The notes: a model not told the origin generated them from the letters alone. Shown: positions 1-37,000, counted from the stretch's first letter. The stretch: 64,000 nucleotides of DNA from Vermamoeba vermiformis (GCA_045837725.1 JBEWZL010000175.1:1-64000); one strand, 5' to 3'. Numbers and translations: made by a program.

Positions 1-1749
1 TGTTGCTCCTTGCATCAAAGTCAAAATTCTTACCAAGCTTGTGAACAGCAAGCAGTTGGGATGCCTCCTTGGAAAAAGCAGCCTTTTGTTCTTCTGAAGC
101 TGTTTCATAAGTCACGTTGGCAGCTTTGGCTAGCAAGTCGCACATTTGATCAATCAAAATAACCTTGTCCATTAGGTTAAGCTCCAGAAAGTTCTCTGTG
201 TCGTTTTTCTGCAAGTCCATGCCAACACAAAACAAATCCTGAATCAAAAGTTTAGATCAAGCAGATCAAAACTATTTCTACTTACTGGTTCATCCTTGGG
301 AACTAGCACTTTAACTTGAAATGCTTGCAGCAGCTCCCACAACATGAAGTAGTGCACTACAACAGCACGGTGCTGCCCTAAAAGTTCAAAGGTTAATCAA
401 CATAAAACAAGGTTGTGATCGCATACCAATGCAAACAGCATAGCTGATTTCCCCTGTTTGCTTGTGCTGAACAGGCACAATTGTTGGTGCTCCTTGGCTA
501 GTACTCCACGGAGTGCAGTTCACCATCAAATTTCGCACATGATCTAAGGACAGGGCACGGATGTTGAGACTGCATCCAGAAAGTTAGTTAATACAAACAA
601 ATTGAATTAGCAACTTACGCTCGTCCTTTTACAATACTATCAGCAGCAAAGATTGGCTTTGACATTGTGACTGTTGTTGCACCGTTTTGCAAGTCCTCCT
701 GACAAAATGCAACATTGAAGTGCGGCAACCTAAACAGATATTAATAATTAATTAAAGTTTTTCAATTTCACTTACTTGAAGCGATTAGGCCGGTTGCAAC
801 AAGGATTTGCACAGGGCTCTGTTGTTGGAGTAGTCAAAGTCGTCACAACAGAATAGTTCTCCATGTCCAGCTCAAAAGTCTGCAAAAAAAAAAAATGATT
901 ATCCGTGCATGGAATAAAATGACTATAGGTCGAGGCAGGACTCTAATGGCCGGCCATAAAAGAAAAATTAAAAAAAAAAACTGCCCACACCTGGATTCGA
1001 ACCTGCTCCAAGCACTGTAGCAGGCAGGACTCTATGGCTGGCCATAGAGGAAAAATAAAAAAAACTGCCCGCACCTGGATTCGAACCTGCTCCAGTGCTT
1101 TGGAAGGTGGGCCTCTATGGCCGGCCATAAAGAAAATAAAAAAAATTGCCTGCAGCTGGATTCGAACCTGCGCCTTTGAGGCAAATAGCAGAACTCTATG
1201 GCCGGCCATAAAGAAAATAAAAAAAAAACTGCCTGCACCTGGATTCGAACCTGCTCCAAGAACTGCAGCAGCAGGACTCTATGGCCGGCCATAAAGGAAA
1301 AATAAAAAAAACTGCCCGCAGCTGGATTCGAACCACAATGACAGGTTCGAGTCCCTCTGTGGCAATTGATTTTTTTTATTTTTGTTATGGCCGGCCATAA
1401 ATTTTGGTCTAAAAGTTGGTTCTCTGATCCGGACTTTTACGCAAGAAAGGCAAAAATTATAATTGATGGGCCATTTATCTTTATGATTAGATGTAAAATA
1501 AGTTAAAATTGCTGCATTTATTAAAAATAAATGTGCGTGATTTTTTCCGGACCAGATTTGATTTTAAAAAACCTTTTAATTTTATGCAGCAGGCAAAAAT
1601 ATCTTTAAAAAAACATTGCATAATATAATTAAGATATTTTAATATTATTTAAGCGCTTTGTTATAAAAATTACTTACATCCGTTGGTAAGTCCGGCAGCT
1701 TCTTTTGCACCAAAGTCTGTTGGTGTCGTGTTGCGGATTCTTCAGCCAT
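1..1749 (-). CDS. ParB/Sulfiredoxin-like domain protein, multi-exon, runs off the left edge
   Basis: Manual splicing gives a continuous frame: exon 1749-1678 (MAEESATRHQQ...), an ~800-nt intron, then exons starting at 879, 729, 569, 377 and ~238. The protein contains LNIRALSLDHVRNLM...PTIVPV...YAVCIGQHRAVV...DLQKNDTENFLELNLMDKV, resembling the ParB/Srx N-x-R, G-x-H-R and downstream N-helix motifs. Confidence 0.55.
933..1400 (-). repeat. Tandem array of ~82-bp units: TATGGCCGGCCATA palindrome, variable core, B-box (GGTTCGAATCC), T-tract
   Basis: Palindromes at ~946, 1033, 1116, 1197, 1280 and 1386. The five intervals each carry CTGGATTCGAACC and an A-rich tract on the + strand. The array lies in intron 1 of the ParB-like gene. 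Confidence 0.92.
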
Positions 1750-2009
1750 GATGTGAGAGTTGTGGTTGCGAGAGTAAACAAGCTTAAAAAAAGAAAGAAA
1801 TTTTTACCGTTACAAGTCGCGCAGATCAAAATTGAACAGCTGTAGAAACACAACAACACCTGCCTTTTACCCTAATTTTGGTAAGTAATATTAAATGTAA
1901 ATGTTTTTTATTGATTGCTGGTGTCAGTTCACCAGCAGTTCGTTGTACATGCTTAAATCCGATCCAAAAACTAATTTTTATTTTCAAAATTCAGGACTGA
2001 GCCAAAAAT

Positions 2010-3233
2010 ATGAACTTTGCTGACAAAATAATTATGCTCTATGCAGGTGAGTATTATTATATTTTTGTTCTGTCATCTGTCTCGGTGAATCCTGACATCT
2101 GGCATTTTTCAGGCAAACCTCCAGGATATAAACCAACCGAGGAGGAGAGTATGTACTTATCTTGTTATTGACACCTGTTTTACTAATTCTACCTCCTGTA
2201 GTAAAGAGGGTGAATGCGCTTGCCCGTGCCAAGTCCAAATCAAAGAAGCAGTCTGAAGGTAATACTGTTGAAATCTTATCGTTCTTAGTCATTCTAACTG
2301 TTAATAATAGAAACTTCTTCTGAGAGTGACCTCAGTGTAAACCGGTTTTCCCCACAAGGAGGTCCCACGAATGCTATTGATGTGGATGAGGTGCACGACA
2401 CAGCTTCTATTCCCAACCCTCCAGCCTCCCCTGCGCAATCCCCTCCCCTCATTTTTACTGCAAATGTCAATAGCTCCAAATTAATTGCGGAAATGCAGAA
2501 AAAATTCACCAACTTGGAAGTTATTGACTTGCAGTAAGTACAAATATTGTTAAATTGAATGTATGCTAATTGCTTGTTTTAGTGATCCAAATGGAATTTA
2601 CCACGTACTGCAGCCATACGCTATGCAAAGCATTGTGCAAATTCCTGTAAGTATTTCTTTTAGTTTTTTAATGCAATGCAATAGACACAAGGCTAACCAC
2701 ACAAATGACAGGTAATTAATTCTGCAAGGATTTCTGTTACTGTTCAAGGGCTTTATGAGTGCTTCAAGTTGTTTAAGCACAATCCAAACATCGACATGGT
2801 TATGTTGCAAAAACATCAAGAAAAGATCGTGCGCAAAGAGCCAGCAAAAGATTTACTTGGTTGGCAATTGGTAAGTAACTTTATTTTTACTTCAAATATA
2901 AGCTTATATTTAAATTACATGACTTTACAGGGGGAAAAAAGCACAACCTTAGTTTCTGCCGAGATTGCGCACCATCTGTTCCACATTTTGCCATACTTAT
3001 GGGTGATGGAGAAATCAAAGCCAATTTGCTTGAAGTTTCTTCGTGATTTTCTTAAGGATGGAAAAAGGCTCCTGCTACTTGACTCTGCCAACAATTTTGA
3101 TATCAACGACTATTCCTCCCCTGTTTCCGTTGCGACTCTTGTTAAATTAATTCTTGAAGATCAGGCACAAGCAATAATAGAGGATATCAAGAACACATAT
3201 GACAATGTAGATCTGAGCATGTATTCTCTGTAA
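2010..3233 (+). CDS. Hypothetical multi-exon protein, divergent from the ParB-like gene
   Basis: About seven exons with canonical splice sites (MNFADKIIMLYA...; last exon GEKSTTLVSAEI...SMYSL*), followed by AATAAA. No recognisable domain. Confidence 0.6.
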
Positions 3234-3460
3234 ATAAATGAAGTTCATGCAAATTTCTTTTTGTTGGATCAGGCCTTTTTGGAACCTGTGGCAGTGCACA
3301 GGATAGAATAGAATATGATACAATAGAATATACATGAAGGGATAGCAATATTTGGCATTAACATGGTGAGAGTTTGAGAATTTGGAAGAGGCGGGATCTG
3401 CTCAGCAGAAATGTTAAGTTCAAGTTGCAAGAAGACAACCAAACAGCAAATTTCGAATAT

Positions 3461-3749
3461 TATGGCTGGTCATAAAGATAGACATTATGCCATGATAAAC
3501 TTGCAATTGAACCCAGGACTTTGGCAGGAGTCAATTTATGGCTGGCCATAAAGTAAAAATAAGATATTTGCCCACACCTGGAATTGAACCTGCGCCAATG
3601 TTGCAGCAACTCTATGGCCGGCCATAGAGGGAAAATAAAAAACTGCCCACACTTGGATTTGAACCTGCGCCTGGATTCAAACCACGATGACAGGTTCGAG
3701 TCCCACTGTGGCCATAGATTTTTTTTATTTCTGTTATGGCTGGCCATAG
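3461..3749 (-). repeat. Second, more diverged copy of the palindrome/B-box array
   Basis: TATGGCYGG(C/T)CATA at ~3461, 3537, 3614 and 3736. It has the same terminal cassette (GGATTCRAACCACRATGACAGGTTCGAGTCCC) and the same orientation as 933-1400. Confidence 0.88.
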
Positions 3750-4050
3750 ACAAACAACGAAATTGCCCACACCATGCTTCTCAGGCCTAATTTGTCACCA
3801 CACCATTTACAAGCTTCATTTTAATGCAGCTTTTATTAGATGAAAATCAAACCAACTACACTAAGGCAATATTAAACACTTTGCCTGCAATGCAGTCAAT
3901 GCATCACTTGCGTAAGCCACAAAGCCATCTGCAAAAATCCATCAGCCCAATCACAGTATGTAAGTACTGTCAGAGCTCGCTTTGACACGGAATTCAAATT
4001 GGTCACTCCAGAACTACCCCAGTGCATCTGTGCCATGGTTGCAAAGTTAA

Positions 4051-4254
4051 CCCCCTTGTTGACCAAGTTTGACCAGACCCCGTCCGCGCCACGGGGACGC
4101 CCCCTTGTTGACCAAGTTTGACCAGACCCCCGTCCGTGCCACGGGGACGCCTCCTTGTTGACCAAGTTTGACCAGACCCCCGTCCGCACCATGGGGACGC
4201 CTCCTTGTTGACCAAGTTTGACCAGACCCCGTCCGCGCCGCGGGGACGCCCCTG
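4051..4254. repeat. Four ~49-50-bp tandem repeats with a CCCCGT/ACGGGG hairpin, ending in CCCCTG
   Basis: Unit CCYCCTTGTTGACCAAGTTTGACCAGACCCCGTCCGYRCCRYGGGGACG occurs four times, then the sequence switches abruptly to AT-rich DNA. Confidence 0.95.
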
Positions 4255-4502
4255 TAAAAAAAGTTAAAAAGTTAAACCCTAAAGTGGAAGTTAGCCCTAC
4301 ATAGTATACTAATTAACTTACATAACCTCCGCTAGCGTATTTTCTTGGATTCGAATCCGCTCAAGTTGCGGATCGTTCGTATTAAATTCGATTTGGAGGA
4401 TTTAGCTCGCGATCTAACTTAATGAGGAGCTTCACTTCGCTTTGATCTGACCATAGTACGTATAATGAGTAAATTAAACAACAATAATATTTAGAGGAAG
4501 CG

Positions 4503-5732
4503 CTTACCTTGATATCAAGCAATTAATCGCGCTGACTTTCAGGGATCAACGCGGGCCCTGAGGATAAAAAAATTCCTCCTTGAAAATACTCACAGAAGAG
4601 TTAGTAAAAGTATTATAATGACTAATAGCCTAAATAAACTTACCTTAATGCTTCCAACTTTGTTTTTGTGTCACCAATCCGGGTAAGTTGCGGATCCGCT
4701 TTCTACGTAACGTCACCGAATTCAGTGACTCTGATTTAAAATATTATATTAGCATATACGATTGATTGGGTTATGCTACTTACGGGTCTGTAATTTGTCA
4801 TGAATCAAAAAAAAATGCTCGCGTCAGATCGCGCCTCCAACGATCGTAAAAATAGCCAACGTGCTCTTACCTGAAGTAAAAACAATATCGATAAGTATGA
4901 TATGTTATTTAACGCGTTCTACTTACTTGTAGCACGATCAATGTCGGAAATTCGTGCACCAGATCGCGTTCCCGAATCCACGCAATTTTGGAATCAACTA
5001 ATTGCTCTGTATAATAAACGATATTAGTACCTTTATATACCAATATAACAATTATTTAACTTACTTGTAGCGCGATCAATGCGCTACGTGAAAATTTATC
5101 TTGAGTTGTGGTGCTCGATCTGCGTCTGTTCTCGTAAATAACCCTTCACTCATTTCTAATTTGCCAACTAAACAATAAAATGATATTAAAATAATTGTTA
5201 CATATGTTTTATAATGCAATTTACTTACTCTTAAGCGTTCGTGGTCGCGCCAAGCAAAATTTATCAGATCGAGCCCGTACTTCTTGATCAACTTCATCGG
5301 GCTCGAACGTTCGTGGGAGCATTCCTACTAATACAGCGCGTTAGTACTTGGCTTTTTAATTATTAATATAAACTTACCATCGATGTCTTATTCTTTAAAT
5401 GGAAATTGTTGACGCGCCCAAAGTCGAGGATCTGGAACGTTCCCGAGTCAATTAGACTATTCCTGTATTATAAAACGTTAGTACTACTATAATACTATCG
5501 ATTTATACCATTAATATTTCTAACTTACCCCTAGATGTAAATTTTTATCGCGTGAAGATCGCGATCTAGATCCGTTCTCATGTTCACTCAAGGCCTAATA
5601 AATAGAGTTAGATTGTAGAATTTTAGATATTTAACTATCCAAATGCACTTACCGGTCAAGAAAACTTTGGCATGTCACGGATCGAGTTTTCGATCGGCTC
5701 AGCGGTCTGGGTCCGTGCCTTCTTCATAAAAC
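4503..5732 (-). other. Array of ~9 short exon-like units with canonical splice signals and no continuous ORF (lncRNA or pseudogene)
   Basis: Minus-strand GTAAG donors near 5652, 5528, 5377, 5228, 5064, 4926, 4783, 4643 and 4507, with branch-point/AG acceptors between them. The exons checked do not join in frame or contain stops. Confidence 0.55.
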
Positions 5733-8685: not shown

Positions 8686-11086
8686 TCAGTCAAACAAACT
8701 ATCATTGAGCTGAGTTGCATAGTTTTGAATGGTTCTAGGGCGATGTGACCGACCATATTCTGTTGTTGGAATGTTTTGAAACTGTTTTGCAGTCCAACCT
8801 TTTGTTGGTGTTGGTTGTGTTACAACAGGGGCATCATAGTCATCAGAGTCTTCTTCGCTGCTGGGTTCGTTTCCAACACCTACCACAGAAGGCAGAGTTG
8901 CCTTGGACAAAACTGAAACAGTTGTTGTGGAGTTCCAACTGATTTGTTTTTGTTTGGGTAAAAACATCATTGGACTTCCGACTATTCGAGCTGGTGATTG
9001 GTCCACGGTTGGACCACATCGTGTTCGTTACCCTCATGTGCTTACCAATAATGCTGTTCCGCTTCTGTTAACTTGTCATAGGTTCTTCTTGTGGCAGCTA
9101 TGATCTTCTCGTCAATTTTGTGCGGTTTAATCATGTTAGGCACTCCTGGGGGTATTGCCATTAGAATTGTAATAGGCTCGCCGTCGGCATCTCCCTTCCA
9201 CTGTTCATCTTCAATAATAGGTTAACTTTAATACAAATATTCATATTAGTCTACAAACCTGTGGAGGTGAAGTCTCGCCATTTCATTACAACATGGCCAT
9301 GCTCGTTCAATGTCAGCCAGAACACGTGCGGTTTGGTGTGGCCTGCAAGTTTTGGCAAGTATGGCGACAACCAGGATCTTAAGTCCCATATTGTCTTTAC
9401 ATAGTGAATTGCTGGTGATTCGCTGTAAGTTGAGTCAACGTAGGCTTGCACATCTTGCATAGAAGCTGTTTTCAAGTTGTGTGATTTCAATCCAGTTGCA
9501 AACGGTACGTTTTGCTGGTCAATGTCAGTGTGGGTGTGCCCTTGCAGGAGGCAGATGAAGAAGATATCCTTGGTGAGTTTTTTCAGCAGAATGACTGCAA
9601 AAAACCCAAGAACAAATATATTCTTGTTTTCACGCCAGCAGTTATCAGATTGAAAAACCAGCTTTGCAGGAATTGTATGTCCATCAGTTACTTGGCCAAA
9701 GAGATGCATTGCTAATAGGTTCATGCTATAGTTGCTATCGTGATCAAATTGCTGTGCAATTGAAATGTATAATTGTTTGACACCCAAGTTATGGTTGATG
9801 ACTCCTGAAACTTGCAGGCGCAGACGTGGGAGACGAAGCCAACTCTTTGGAAAGTTACACCATGCAATATGGGGTAACAAAACACCAGAATATCCATCCC
9901 ATATGGTTTGCCACAGAATTGTACAGTCAATAGCTTTTCGAGAGTCATACGTCAATCGCTCAAGCTTTTGAAGTGTGTTATGGTCCTTCAACTTTTGCTT
10001 AATCTGCTGAACCCGAATCACTGTTTGCTTGTTTGCTTGATTCAGCTGACTAATTTACTTGTTAGCATTTCGCAGAAAAGTTTGAAGCACTTACATTTTA
10101 AGTTCTATGCACTCGTCACATTTGCCCAATCTGGTGTTCTTTGGGAATTTGATCCACGTGTATTGTCGCATTGTCTTATAGAACAGTTTTTTGGAAGGAG
10201 GCTCTTGTGGCTCCTGTGCAACCAAGTCATCATATAGAAGTGTCTTGCTTAGAACAATAGGGCAGTGCCACTCGTTAGAGTCTGGTTGCTCATCAAAGAA
10301 GATGTTCACTAGACCAAGGAGAAATCGATGAACCTTGTCTGTTTGAGGAGTTTGATAAGTGCGCAAGCTGTTTCCATGAGGATGAACAACGACATCATTG
10401 ACCTTGAGGGACCGTAGAGCTGTTGTTATTTTCGTGCTGCTAATTCCAAGAGCCTTGGTAAAAGCAGTTCTACAGACCACACGTCCTTCTAACTTGTAAA
10501 CGATCTTGACTGATTCTTGTGTGCATATCGATGATGCCCGCAATACATCTAAAAGCCATTGTGATCTGTGTAAGCATTAATAATTGCCGCAGTGACTACA
10601 CTGTCGTACCTGTCATGCTCGTTTTTAGCTATAAAGGGAAGTCGAATACGCTTTAACTCTGCCTTAGAGAATGAACGCAAACATTGCTGATTACAGCACT
10701 GTTCATGCGACAGATTATCAATTTGTGACCCGCGAATTAATTTGACAGGAGGATGTCGTTGCTTGACGTTTCGATTTGGTGAATTATACTGTCTCTTATA
10801 TACAGGTTGATATACTGATGCTAAATTGTCATTCCAGTCTATTTGAATCGTAAGTAAAGCACTGCATACAGCGCGTAAAACGCTTACCGTCGAAAACAGC
10901 CGCCAAATCAACATCATCCAGTTCATGCATATTGATATCAACAGTAGTATTGTCAGAAAATACATCTTCCAAATTGGTATTCTCCCACCAATTGTCTGAC
11001 AAAGAAGCGAAAATTAACAATTCGAAAAAATTAATTAATTATTAATTTGATATTGGACTTTACACACCTAAGCCAGCACTGCTCAT
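8686..11086 (-). CDS. Sola/DUF7869-type DDD transposase, spliced
   Basis: Motifs CCNQQC, VCRTAFTKALGIS, KCDEC, WDG, FQSDNCWRENKN and GHTHTDIDQ. The three ORF blocks join in frame through canonical short introns. The C-terminal ~150 codons are uncertain. Confidence 0.82.
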
Positions 11087-15536: not shown

Positions 15537-17638
15537 TTATTTCCGTGTGTCGCGGATCCATTCGTAGGCAAGTTCTACTGCACGATCCAAAGTATCAGCG
15601 TGTTTTGCGCGCAAGTTATCGCCATTGCAATCCGGAAGATACGACGCCATTGACGACCATATATTAGACAGCTTCTTGTAGGCATTATCGACGTATATTA
15701 CAGGCCTACCAATGAGAACTGACATGATGCTCGCGTGCAATCTGTCGGTCACGATAACACTTCCACGGCTGAGCAGTTTGTTGCCCATCGCCACTCGGAA
15801 TATCGGCAAAATATCCTTGGGAATGTCCTGTGCCGAAAGATTCGGATACAGCCGCCTGTAGTCGTACAGGGCGCTGTGGTTCTCTTGAATGCTCTTCTGG
15901 GTTGGATAGCCATCAACAGGGAAGTCCCAGATCTCGTACGACAGCTCCTTTTCGTTCGCAAAACTCTTAGCCTTGGTAATGTGCGTGTCATTGATGTTCT
16001 TCTCGGTATCTGAACGGAGCAAAAAGAGGATGTCGACTATTGGCGCATCAGCGGGAGCAATTGGACCAATCATGAAGGCCATGTCGGGAACGAAGACTGA
16101 TTCTGTGTTGGGGAATTTTTCACGTGCGTACTTTAGCGATGGAGTGTCGCGCAACAGGAGAGTTAATTTGCCGTGCTTTTCAAACGCAGCTCTATCTTGC
16201 AAAGCATATTTCTCCTCGCGGTAGCTGATTGATTGAGGCAAGAATATCACTCTGTTGCTCGTCTCATTCAATACTTTCAGTCGGAAGTCCGCATTTTCCC
16301 TCCACCAATCCCCGAAATTTCCACCGCCGTGCAGCAGCACGGAAACGTTCTTCGAATACTTGTAATCGATAATTAGTTACATTTGTTATGAGGAAGTGGT
16401 ACGTACGTTACGCAAAGTTTCCAATTCTCGCTGTTCAGGATCACGAGGAGTGACGACAGGGAGCGATTGCATACTCATGAATAAGTTGTCGCCGTGCCAT
16501 ATGAATGAGTCGCCAAGGTTCCAATGTAGCGGCACATCCATCAAGCTCAAGGCCTCTGAGCCTGCGATCAGCTTGGACAAGCGTTCATTGATCATCTTGC
16601 GTGCCTTGAAAAGACATTGTAATCGCTGAGCGTCCTTTTCTTGAGCAATCGGTATCAAAGACGCGTTGTATGGCACGTTGTAATTCGAGTCTATCGACGA
16701 TACGTTGAGTTGCACAGGACCTAGCGTTGATTTGGAAGCCACGGCTGTGATTCCATGAGCGTAGACAAGAAACGCAGTGCACACTACAATGAGAGCTAGT
16801 GCATTCAAAGTTTGACTGTAGTGGTTCGCGTCGACGTTCAAAGTTTGTGGCGAATCTTCTGGCGATGCCTTGATACGTCGCAAGAGGAAGTACCCAATGA
16901 CCACCAAAGCTAACGCTACCACCGTCAGCAGGTCTACTGGGATATGGACCATTGCGACAACTGCAATAGCTGCGAGACAAATTACTTCGTAGAATTTGTC
17001 AGACATGCGCTTATGAAGAGCATAGCCTCCCCCAACCGCTAACATCGCCCATGATTGTGTAGACCAGTTGAAATTCAACTCGGCAATCGCTAATGGGAGT
17101 GCGAGGACTGACAACAATGCATTGGAATAAAATTGAGTGTATGTCGCTACATTTTCTTCCAGAGTTTGTTCTTTTACATGTGCCAAGTAGTTATAAGCGC
17201 ATCCAAGTAATAAAGTCAAGCCGTCGATACGCTATTGAAGTAACAGTGCTATTAAGGGCATAACATATATTGCACTATTAAGTTTCGATAGTCGCTGTTC
17301 AAATAATCCAAAAAGCACTTGGCTAGCGATCTGGGATAGAGATGAGATCGATTTTCGCATTTATTTATTGTTTTACCTGCGATATGAAAAAGCCATGCAA
17401 AGATGAGTATTGAAGAGCCATGAAAAAAGCAATAGTTGTTGAAATATTGAGAAGCACATCCCTTTTCTTGAGTGCCACGATCTGGACTCCACAATGTTTT
17501 GCCGAGCGTTAGACCAGAAAAAACTGCTGAAATAATAGCGCTTATCCATATTACAACATTTACAACATTATCTTTCGCTAGTTGCGTAGAAAACAATAAA
17601 ATGCACTGGACGTACAATAAATATGACAAGCCAGTCAT
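15537..17638 (-). CDS. Polysaccharide pyruvyltransferase (Pvg1-like) preceded by a multi-TM nucleotide-sugar-transporter-like region
   Basis: NLGD, HGGGNFGD, PQSI, LRD, PDMAF and TDRLHA motifs. The N-terminal hydrophobic region has ALQY and FYSNALLS motifs, one frameshift (~17500) and one in-frame TAG (17232-17234). Confidence 0.85.
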
Positions 17639-34058: not shown

Positions 34059-37000
34059 ATGGGAGATAACAACACAAATCCAGTTCCGGATCAATCAGCT
34101 GCCAATCAGCATGACAGTAACACACATGACGAACAAAAACACCACGCCGACGCAAATATACACGACAAACGAAGTACCCACGAGCATGACACCGAATCTG
34201 GAGGTAGGTACTTGTTGGCCAGTCTTAAAATTTGGCAATAAATAATTAAAAAATGTATTTAATTGGTACATCAATTTTTCTGACCCCAAAAATTAAATTT
34301 TTTTGGATGCGATCGTGTTACCGTTTTCATGAAACATTCAATTTGCCGCGCAAGGCATTTTACTTACCAGCACGCATTAAAATAAATAGGGGTTTCTGGA
34401 CTCGATGAAGCAATTAGTGATGGTGAAGACAGCGAGCACGGCGAATCTGCGGTGTCACACGATGAATCTCCAAATAAGCCAAACAATCCGCCTTCAGACA
34501 TGCCAAAATCACTGGCGTCAATATTCTCTAATGGGCCCGCTGATGCTGTTTCTTCAGAGCCAAATCCACCAAGAATCTCACGGTTAGACGCGCAAAAATT
34601 CATTATTGAAGAGGAAAGCGACGCAAAAGACTCGCCAAGATCGAACAACAGTAACGGTACGTATATTAAATATGCCTCGAAATTTACGGTGTTGATTTAA
34701 AATCTCAACTAATTATTTAAAAATCAAGACTACCTCCAAACGGTTGACAGCATTGCCGAATTTGACTTGCGCCACTTGGGTGCTTCTAGAGTAAATATTC
34801 GACCCACAATCAACCAAGATAGCCACAAAGACCTTTCCTCGGATTCAGATCACGACCACGTCTTGCTTGATGATCGCTCAGACTTGCATACTGTTGTGGA
34901 TATTCCAAGTAAGTGTTTGCGGATAAAATTCTCCCACAATGTTTACTTTTTGGTTTTGACCACCCAATTTGACACCGTTGCGAGACATTTTTCTGTTGGA
35001 CCAGTAGCTCAAAAGTAGAGCCCTCGCCTGCCCTTCGGGGTATCATCCTGGTTTTCACAAGAAATTGTTGAATTCTCTGTCAAAAAGTTCTTTAATACGA
35101 GTAGTTGTGGGTGCAAGTCCCACCTGGTCCTCTTCCTTTTTGGCCCACGATCAGATACTTTTTTCCCCTGGTCCATTTCTTTTTTTGCCTTCGCGCAGAG
35201 GCATTTATATTTTCCTTGTGCTAACGATTACCTAAGGTGACGATCAAGAACATGGGGATTTTGGCTACGAACAGACAGTATTTGGGCACTACAACACTGA
35301 TCTGCAGAACCAAGCCGCTGAGGCTGTCAGGCTGGCCAAATTAAAGAAAGAGAAGGCTAAGAGAAAAGTGCGTAGTTTTTTCTATTTGACTTCGTATTAA
35401 TACTTCAAAGGCCGCTGTGCGAACCGACATTACGCTTGAAACCCCGTGGAGGAAGTTTCGTCGTTGGTTGCTTCGGTTCTTCGCACCACTAAGACACCCG
35501 ATAGTGTTTTTAGTCATTTTAGGCGCTATTGCAGCTCTAGTGGGTGTGGCTATGGATACTTTTATCGCATTTATTTTAGATTGTAAGTACGACTAGCGCT
35601 TGCGCGAGAGACACTAACACCTTTTATAGTGCGCACGTTTTTAATTTCGTTAACAACGGTGACCTCACTCCAATATTTTATCTGGGTCATGCACATGTTG
35701 GTTTTCTTAGGCTTTTCAATGTTCATAACACAGGTGATCAGCATTCAAGCTGCCGGTAAGCACGGTAACAATTTGGCTAACAAGTACATTAACACGTGAT
35801 CTACTAGGGTCTGGTATACCCGAAATGAAGTGCATATTGTCGGGCATTCAATTAGGCTCTTATTTAACGCTGAAGACACTTCTAGCAAAGATTCTTGGCC
35901 TATCCACAGCGATTGGCTCGGGTCTATTTGTGGGCAAAGAAGGTCCGTTCGTGCACACATCTAGCATTATAGCCAATCAACTCTCGAAGATTAAATTCTT
36001 TCGAATCCACAACGTACGTCGTAATGATTGTGGATGAGTTACAGGGCTGACTGTTGGTTTAGAATCCAGCACTGAAACAACAAATGTTCGCAGCAGCTGC
36101 CGCCGTTGGTGTTGCATCGAACTTTGGCAGTCCAATTGGAGGTGTATTATTTAGTATCGAAGTAACGTCAACGTACTACCCACTGCGTAACTACTGGTTT
36201 GCATTTGTTGCTGCTACTACGGGCGGAACTTTGTTCAAAGTGATGACAAACAGCTACGCCGGTCAACGTAGGTATTCCATGCTCAACCTTCCACGTGCAC
36301 TAATATTCTTTAGCGCTTCTTCGTGCGTACTTGCCAACAGCATTCCCCGATGCCATTGCAAAGGCGAACTGGTGGGAGTTCTTGGTATTTATTGCTATGG
36401 GACTCGTGGGCGGTGTATTGTCAGCCGTGTTCATTCTTGCAAACTCGAAGTGGATCAAGTTTAGACGCGCTTATGCCAGCAAATACAAGATATTAGAGTA
36501 CGTAGCAAAGTGACCCTTTTTTTCTTCGATCTTAAATTTCTTTGCAGTGCCTATCCTTACGCTGTCCTAGCAGCTTTGTTTACCGCCTTAGTAACCTTCC
36601 CATTACACGATGTTCGCGTAAGTCCCGCCGTCCTCACATTGAAATACCATTCTAAATACAATCGTTTAGCTGGGAAGTTTTGCAGCGTTGAAGGATTTGT
36701 ATCAAGACAGTCCTCTCGTGCCTTATCCGCACAGCAAACTCAACTCTGACTGGAGCGATTTCAGCGTGTACTTGTCACTGCCAATCTTCATGTTCATGCG
36801 CGTAAGTAGTGACGTTTGCTTATATTTGACGGATATTAATCCGTTCTCTGAAGATGATATTGCTCATTATCGCGCTGTCGATCCCTGTTCCTGCGGGAGT
36901 TGTCATTCCTGTACTGGTCATTGGAGCGTCTTTCGGCCGTATCTTCGGCGAGGCTGTCAGCTACTTTGCCGGTGGTATGTCGTTGAGCCCTGGAATCTAC

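Follow-up and report, generated by a model that had tools for sequence, protein, structure and literature searches.

A palindrome-rich tandem repeat resembling the tail of a tRNA gene in a predicted intron of Vermamoeba vermiformis

B-box clusters and palindrome-bounded arrays described elsewhere

The repeats IR-L and IR-R of the fungus S. pombe carry five B boxes each; they are inverted copies of about 2 kb on either side of a heterochromatic domain of 20 kb, and TFIIIC has been shown to bind them without Pol III (PMC7474672). [quoted passage not shown] CeRep3, a family of suspected tRNA pseudogenes, accounts for 214 of these overlaps; the sites concerned are interspersed and have both A and B boxes (PMC6950938). 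A different kind of architecture is found among non-autonomous DNA transposons with internal tandem repeats, as HINE, pearl, DTC84 and Cg_HINE contain arrays of up to about five repeats with ordered variants, palindromes at the repeat junctions and a palindrome at the element's end (PMC3879986, PMC7492417). HINE, pearl and DTC84 elements also possess conserved modules on the left and right that contain subterminal inverted repeats, and they have a microsatellite, monomers of 140-180 bp and a high copy number (PMC3879986, PMC7492417).

The window analysed here, a stretch of 64,000 nucleotides from V. vermiformis (GCA_045837725.1 JBEWZL010000175.1:1-64000), holds an array near its start (locus A) and a second, more decayed copy of the same family (locus B; Table 1). 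Features of both classes of system recur in locus A, and it is, on balance, probably a neutral, low-copy, palindrome-rich tandem repeat made from the 3' half of a tRNA gene and its terminator, and probably not a gene.

Table 1. Positions of the repeat loci, their parts and the predicted host gene, counted from the first nucleotide of the window
Feature	Position	Strand	Basis	Remarks
Host gene, predicted exon 1	1678-1749	minus	open frames and GT..AG signals	contains ATG
Host gene, predicted exon 2	776-879	minus	open frames and GT..AG signals	
Host gene, predicted first intron	880-1677	minus	open frames and GT..AG signals	hosts locus A
Locus A, complete tandem and inverted repeat array	933-1404	minus	TRF, repeat finding, nhmmer matches with unit profile	
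Head unit A0	1293-1398	minus		palindrome, A-run, inverted arm resembling a tRNA 3' half, 9-nt loop, direct arm, T-run
Unit A1, 83 nt	1210-1292	minus		core akin to A4 core
Unit A2, 81 nt	1129-1209	minus		second subtype: GGCGCAGG ... GGCAA
Unit A3, 83 nt	1046-1128	minus		core contains the A4 core's 3' part, inverted
Unit A4, 88 nt	958-1045	minus		palindrome with one change, ATGGCCAGCCAT on the minus strand
Unit A5, truncated last unit	933-957	minus		palindrome and initial 8 nt of an A4-type core; unique intron sequence follows
Junction palindrome ATGGCCGGCCAT	946-957, 1034-1045, 1117-1128, 1198-1209, 1281-1292, 1387-1398			one mismatch at 1034-1045
B-box-like GGTTCGAATCC	993-1003, 1077-1087, 1158-1168, 1241-1251, 1324-1334	minus	motif search	993-1003 in A4
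B-box-like GGTTCGAGTCC	1344-1354	plus	motif search	
Locus B	3462-3781	minus	motif searches, nhmmer	second, more decayed copy of the family; fragments at both of its ends
Locus B, head B0	3626-3747	minus		
Locus B, unit B1	3550-3625	minus		
Locus B, unit B2	3474-3549	minus		

Structure of the array, its head, its cores and its second copy

Locus A would lie in the first intron of a minus-strand gene, the model of which, like those of the neighbouring genes, is predicted; translations of the two exons gave no Pfam match at E<=0.01. Two proteins of the window have look-alikes in animal families, DUF7869 and GABA-B-like receptors.

The array is present far beyond chance. The B-box-like motif GGTTCRANTCC occurs exactly nine times in the 64-kb window against 0.22 expected, and six of these occurrences fall within the array, while the palindrome ATGGCCGGCCAT, with at most one mismatch, is found nine times against 0.06 expected (six in the array, five of them exact). 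This palindrome forms the centre of a 20-nt block that is 90% self-complementary. TRF describes the tandem part (933-1334) with a period of 83, 4.8 copies, 80% matches and a score of 478, and a repeat search resolves five direct copies at spacings of 84, 81, 83 and 83, six copies of a 16-nt palindrome block and, at the array end, an inverted half-unit (1342-1404 on the plus strand). A first-pass annotation of this DNA had missed that the array finishes in an inverted half-unit, within the head, as well as the entire second locus and the dependence of most cores on one another.

Read on the minus strand, the unit runs from ATGGCCGGCCAT through AGAG, a core of 22-23 nt, GCAGGTTCGAATCCAG and (G/C)TG(C/T)(A/G)GGCA(G/A) into 8-11 T. 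The order of these parts had been described correctly, as had the four cores quoted from the plus strand, though A2 departs from the segment 'GGRGCAGG' given for every unit and has GGCGCAGG instead. Identity among A1-A4 is 94% in the flanks (236 of 252 positions) and 56% in the cores (79 of 141), so the repeat-spacer-like pattern of conserved flanks and variable cores that had first drawn attention to the array is real. In A0-A4 the T-run directly follows ...GGCA(G/A), the position of the oligo-T terminator in a tRNA gene, again as had been proposed.

The segment 1281-1398, comprising A0 and the adjoining palindrome, forms a hairpin of 118 nt when folded as single-stranded DNA (-38.7 kcal/mol, z -8.96), which none of 200 shuffles equalled, and it has T-runs on both strands. 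In a bolder variant of the landing-pad proposal discussed below, this head would be made by Pol III as a hairpin RNA. The inverted arms of locus A are unequal, with five units facing a half-unit, and the same asymmetry recurs in locus B.

The variable cores were the reason for supposing that the array might be a battery of guide-like segments, an idea that fares poorly once the cores are compared with each other. In local alignments against shuffles, the cores of A1 and A4 are direct relatives (20 of 23 positions identical, p<0.0005), as the first reading had already suspected, and the core of A3 matches that of A4 in reverse orientation only (16/18, p=0.002). The cores of B1 and A1 match with p=0.018 forward and 0.033 in reverse, and the beginning of A5 resembles the A4 core; the A2 core has no significant kinship to any other (all p>0.1). 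Tested against shuffled cores, the duplex between a core and the 3' arm of its own unit is significant for A4 (p=0.003) and A1 (p=0.014), marginal for A3 (p=0.06), and not significant for A2 (p=0.19) or B1 (p=0.23). By their sequence, then, the cores of A1 and A4 are inverted and degenerate copies of the 3' arm of the unit itself. A cross table in which every core was combined with the arms of other units had no diagonal excess, so there is no unit-specific matching and the hairpin relation is a generic one. Taken together, the kinship among cores and their complementarity to the arm indicate that in each unit the core is what is left of the partner arm of a small hairpin, in decayed form, and not an independent insert, a reading that leaves the A2 core unexplained. 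What sets the two unit subtypes apart is found mainly in the core, and because the T-A versus C-G difference between them amounts to at most one event, no structural claim is drawn from it.

In a CRISPR-like repeat-spacer array, the spacers are expected to show no relation to one another or to the repeat; here A1 is related to A4, A3 to A4 in reverse, and A1 and A4 to the arm. The contrast between flanks and cores and the unexplained A2 core would suit an array with acquired, guide-like cores, yet three of the four cores in locus A go back to a common ancestor (in one case through inversion), two match the unit's own 3' arm, and the units form no structured RNA. A search of the cores against other sequence, which had been suggested as a check, was carried out within the 64-kb window and found no match for any core; the best outside hits were either exact over 10 nt or had one mismatch over 13-14 nt (E>=0.59). 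Acquisition of guides is thus an extremely improbable origin for the cores.

Locus B has the same head followed by two to three decayed units. By blastn, positions 934-1399 of locus A align with 3513-3750 at 75-78%, and the similarity is confined to this part, with unrelated flanks. The head is best conserved (70/77 identical to locus A), followed by B1 (63/83) and B2 (41/81). Each of the minus-strand B boxes of locus B (GGTTCAATTCC, GGTTCAAATCC and GGTTTGAATCC) has lost one consensus base, which is the pattern expected without constraint. The 35 substitutions between the two loci comprise 20 transitions and 15 transversions. Methylation-driven CpG decay of locus B was considered and rejected, with an observed/expected CpG ratio of 1.11 in the window and 8 of the 35 substitutions in CpG context. 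In the predicted gene models, locus B lies about 230 bases behind the stop of a divergently transcribed neighbour gene, and the two loci, which are direct repeats and not inverted relative to each other, bracket about 2.1 kb that hold the starts of two divergent genes and the entire second gene.

Searches of public metagenome and genome contig collections returned no match to further copies of the family. In one DNA sequencing run, 238 contig pieces gave a summed depth of 734-1243 over 1033-1328, against 64.9 on the left flank and 122.8 on the right, and this excess of some 6-19 times the left flank is not a copy number. One contig of the run joins the A-run to a diverged unit absent from the window. 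The depth and this contig together indicate that more copies exist, but few, and that the family is small. Another observation from the same run is a contig that joins 934 to 1271, skipping 336 bases, which may be a shorter allele or only an assembly path.

The family may be related to a mobile element. As a refinement of the neutral reading, and not an exclusive rival to it, locus A could be a non-autonomous DNA transposon with internal tandem repeats, of the foldback or HINE/pearl-like kind, in which the head hairpin would be the terminal palindrome. The layout of an end palindrome beside a central array of few repeats is indeed present (118-nt hairpin, 4.8 repeats), and a series of no more than five repeats next to a terminal palindrome, with a palindrome at each repeat junction and ordered variants, parallels the layout of DTC84/pearl and of HINEs, including Cg_HINE (PMC3879986, PMC7492417). 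The combination of head and array recurs at the second locus between unrelated flanks and in at least one contig from elsewhere. Other diagnostic parts are missing from the comparison of the two loci: A and B resemble each other in the repeat alone, with no common left or right flanking modules and no subterminal inverted repeats; TRF on positions 1-5000 gives only A-rich runs beside the array and no microsatellite; the unit measures 83 bp as opposed to about 140-180 bp; and no target-site signature is readable from two copies. The depth excess is modest, and both loci end inside units, as ordinary tandem repeats do. The 118-nt palindrome is also much longer than the 'short palindromic sequence' attributed to HINEs (PMC7492417), and DTC84 is without complete Pol III boxes, unlike the locus A unit with its perfect B box (PMC3879986).

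A looser parallel is offered by the inverted arms of the locus. Foldback transposons such as Drosophila FB, Tetris and Galileo have terminal inverted repeats built of tandem subrepeats. Locus A may resemble them in its inverted arms of tandem subrepeats and in the unequal repeat numbers of these arms, but differs in that a single arm is amplified (five units versus a half-unit), in its length of <0.5 kb, and in having no known transposase or defined termini. On this evidence, membership in a transposon family of either kind is somewhat unlikely.

tRNA likeness and signals for Pol III

The resemblance to a tRNA gene is confined to the 3' part of the unit. Its 22-nt sequence GGTTCGAATCCAGCTGCAGGCA is identical at all 22 positions to the T-arm and acceptor end of a tRNA-Arg(TCT) in a phage contig, the sole match of a degenerate-pattern scan of viral contigs, confirmed as a tRNA by ARAGORN; the match shows the kind of sequence and not its source. 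ARAGORN found no tRNA gene in the window and none in either locus with -ps, -ps80 or -mt, and Rfam gave no match to RF00005 at E<=10 over 600-1800 or 1040-1300, though the same library does detect a tRNA-like gene at 34998-35131. Downstream of that gene there is no ATGGCCGGCCAT or similar sequence, so the palindrome is not a general feature of tRNA flanks. Every unit shows an A.A mismatch in its T stem, and the putative RNAs of 62-63 nt fold no better than shuffles (z +0.64, +1.11, -0.13 and -0.26; 200 shuffles each). The description of the units as tRNA mimics is accordingly not supported, beyond the likeness of their 3' part to a tRNA tail; the pairing that had been proposed between the 5' GCCGGC and the 3' end does exist, but extends over 3-5 base pairs and no more. 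A PBS-like or retroelement reading was also considered and dropped, as the complement of the tRNA-like end has no TGG in front of it and the A-rich 'tail' is antisense to the B box.

Upstream of the B box, whose consensus is GGTTCGANTCC, a type-2 promoter of Pol III has an A box, TRGCNNAGTGG, at a distance of about 30-60 nt. The B box assigned to every unit by the first-pass annotation is borne out exactly in five of five minus-strand units, with one more on the plus strand. The same annotation had seen no good A box, and none that is usable could be found in the array: even the relaxed pattern TRGCNNARNGG, allowing one mismatch, occurs only at 1173-1183 and 1354-1364 on the minus strand, in both cases adjoining a B box within about 5-10 nt. 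The relaxed pattern is not enriched in the window either (95 found, 106.5 expected).

A battery of small RNAs of about 60 nt, each transcribed by Pol III from its internal B box to its own T-run, is therefore to be weighed against these counts. Each unit does present an exact B box, 8-11 T after an acceptor-like end and a T/A-rich stretch upstream, and Pol III can use weak A boxes. No A box lies at a workable distance, however, and the predicted transcripts show neither a detectable tRNA-like fold, with the stability of shuffles, nor unit-specific covariation, so that working units of this kind are very unlikely. Three cDNA RNA-seq runs, which are not small-RNA libraries, gave 41, 32 and 8 reads and zero depth on both predicted neighbouring exons. 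Nearly all of these reads (40/41, 32/32 and 8/8) match the stretch over part of their length, with runs of A or T at the unmatched ends, so the three runs weigh neither for nor against transcription.

The same signals could instead serve TFIIIC alone. The array presents B boxes without an A box and without a detectable Pol III gene, which is the sequence pattern of extra-TFIIIC sites, and on this reading the B boxes would bind TFIIIC without Pol III while loci A and B would act as a chromatin boundary or a nucleosome-free architectural element. Five exact copies of GGTTCGAATCC at the 83-bp period, GGTTCGAGTCC on the other strand and the position of the two loci, about 2.1 kb apart, on either side of divergent gene starts are consistent with such a role, and precedents are at hand in IR-L and IR-R of S. 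pombe and CeRep3 of C. elegans (PMC7474672, PMC6950938). The fission yeast elements share with loci A and B the five B boxes per element, the absence of a tRNA gene and the arrangement of two elements flanking a domain, and CeRep3 shares the apparent descent from tRNA genes with the B box kept (PMC7474672, PMC6950938).

The differences are substantial as well. In contrast to the inverted S. pombe copies, loci A and B are direct, unequal and partly decayed arrays, and unlike the interspersed CeRep3 copies, which have both boxes, locus A is a tandem array at 83 bp with junction palindromes and no A box (PMC7474672, PMC6950938). All minus-strand B boxes of locus B lack one consensus base, and the arrangement around the gene pair could reflect plain local duplication of the repeat. 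A role as TFIIIC sites is thus unlikely. The more specific proposal, that both arrays are selected TFIIIC landing pads forming a boundary or loop anchor around the divergent gene pair, a tRNA-tail repeat domesticated in the manner of the fission yeast IRs, would have to be regarded as decidedly doubtful. On the neutral reading, any binding of TFIIIC to these B boxes would be a by-product of the repeat's origin.

Origin of the repeat and its possible meaning

The neutral reading, which we regard as the probable one, makes locus A a low-copy repeat derived from the tail of a tRNA gene. The 83-bp unit would have originated from the T arm with its B box, the 3' acceptor strand and the oligo-T terminator, and GCCGGCC would perhaps be a remnant of the 5' acceptor. 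The family is built as inverted repeats. In the head, its best-conserved part, two tRNA-tail-like arms stand opposite one another with an A-run on one side and a T-run on the other, and ATGGCCGGCCAT palindromes form the bounds. The array may have grown when one arm was duplicated, the junction palindromes being the place of slippage or unequal exchange. The likeness of the flanks would be due to gene conversion and recent duplication, while the cores, as decayed partner arms, would have been altered by inversion, indels and point mutation; structural differences between cores would halt conversion tracts, so that the cores would stay different. We infer that locus A most likely encodes nothing.

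This account returns to a caveat attached to the original proposal, that the array might be a diverged minisatellite, which is the reading favoured by the present analysis. Locus A has in common with minisatellites its 83-bp unit, its short intronic array, end units that are cut short and possibly a variant length (the 934-1271 joint), but unlike ordinary minisatellites it would descend from a tRNA gene tail, it bears an inverted copy at its end, and its divergence is concentrated in the 22-nt core. Several observations count against neutrality. The five of five perfect B boxes and the exact placement of the terminators would also be expected of functional Pol III units, or of TFIIIC sites under selection, the A2 core is without significant kin, and the subtype difference is explained by inference alone. 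The family itself is defined by comparison of two loci.

If locus A is merely a decayed tRNA-derived repeat, its import is small, as it would add one more tandem and inverted repeat made of tRNA debris. It would also caution against calling a gene from a perfect B box with oligo-T behind it. Should TFIIIC bind there, the B-box clusters near a bidirectional promoter would provide a compact and testable model of Pol III-independent functions of TFIIIC. The concentration of change in a 22-nt core, brought about in part by inversion, would make the array a small, clean example of hairpin-driven rearrangement within a repeat.

Head hairpin and RNA reads at the predicted host gene

The core of the hairpin formed at the head unit of the repeat array (locus A) gave a weak miRNA-precursor-like match to mir-1789 in Rfam. 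Scoring far below the gathering value, this match mirrors only the shape of the hairpin. Across positions 700-1800, zero reads from RNA runs X21-X23, which share their species label with the DNA run, fell on either predicted exon of the minus-strand gene inferred to host the array; this leaves two options: the samples do not express the gene, or a diverged strain is included under that label.

Features of the window discussed in this section
Feature	Position	Strand	Details
mir-1789 match	1312-1368	+	22.9 bits (gathering 88), E 0.046
Tandem repeat	4051-4252		50-bp unit, 4.1 copies, 92% matches
DUF7869 frame	9251-10054	-	267 aa, E 2.2e-45
PF04230 frame	15537-16376	-	279 aa, unbroken, E 4.1e-19
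tRNA-like gene (Rfam)	34998-35131	+	43.3 bits (gathering 29)

Neighbouring repeat and a tRNA-like gene

Approximately 300 bases past locus B, the more decayed second copy of the repeat family, lies a GC-rich tandem repeat with a short inverted repeat inside every unit. Further along the window, a tRNA-like gene matched by Rfam and not detected by ARAGORN carries an insertion of ∼66 nt within the anticodon region and an atypical T loop, and is followed a few bases 3' by a T5 run. Candidate readings are a tRNA with an intron and a pseudogene.

Base composition and coding frames

Over the whole window, CpG is not depleted (observed/expected 1.11) and TpA stands at 0.78, a pattern pointing to scarce or absent CpG methylation in the genome that carries it. 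The frame encoding DUF7869 has uncharacterised animal proteins as its Atlas look-alikes, and the gene is therefore probably transposon-related. The second frame encodes a polysaccharide pyruvyl transferase domain, a family that is mainly bacterial; as the window around it is otherwise animal-like, this gene may have been acquired.
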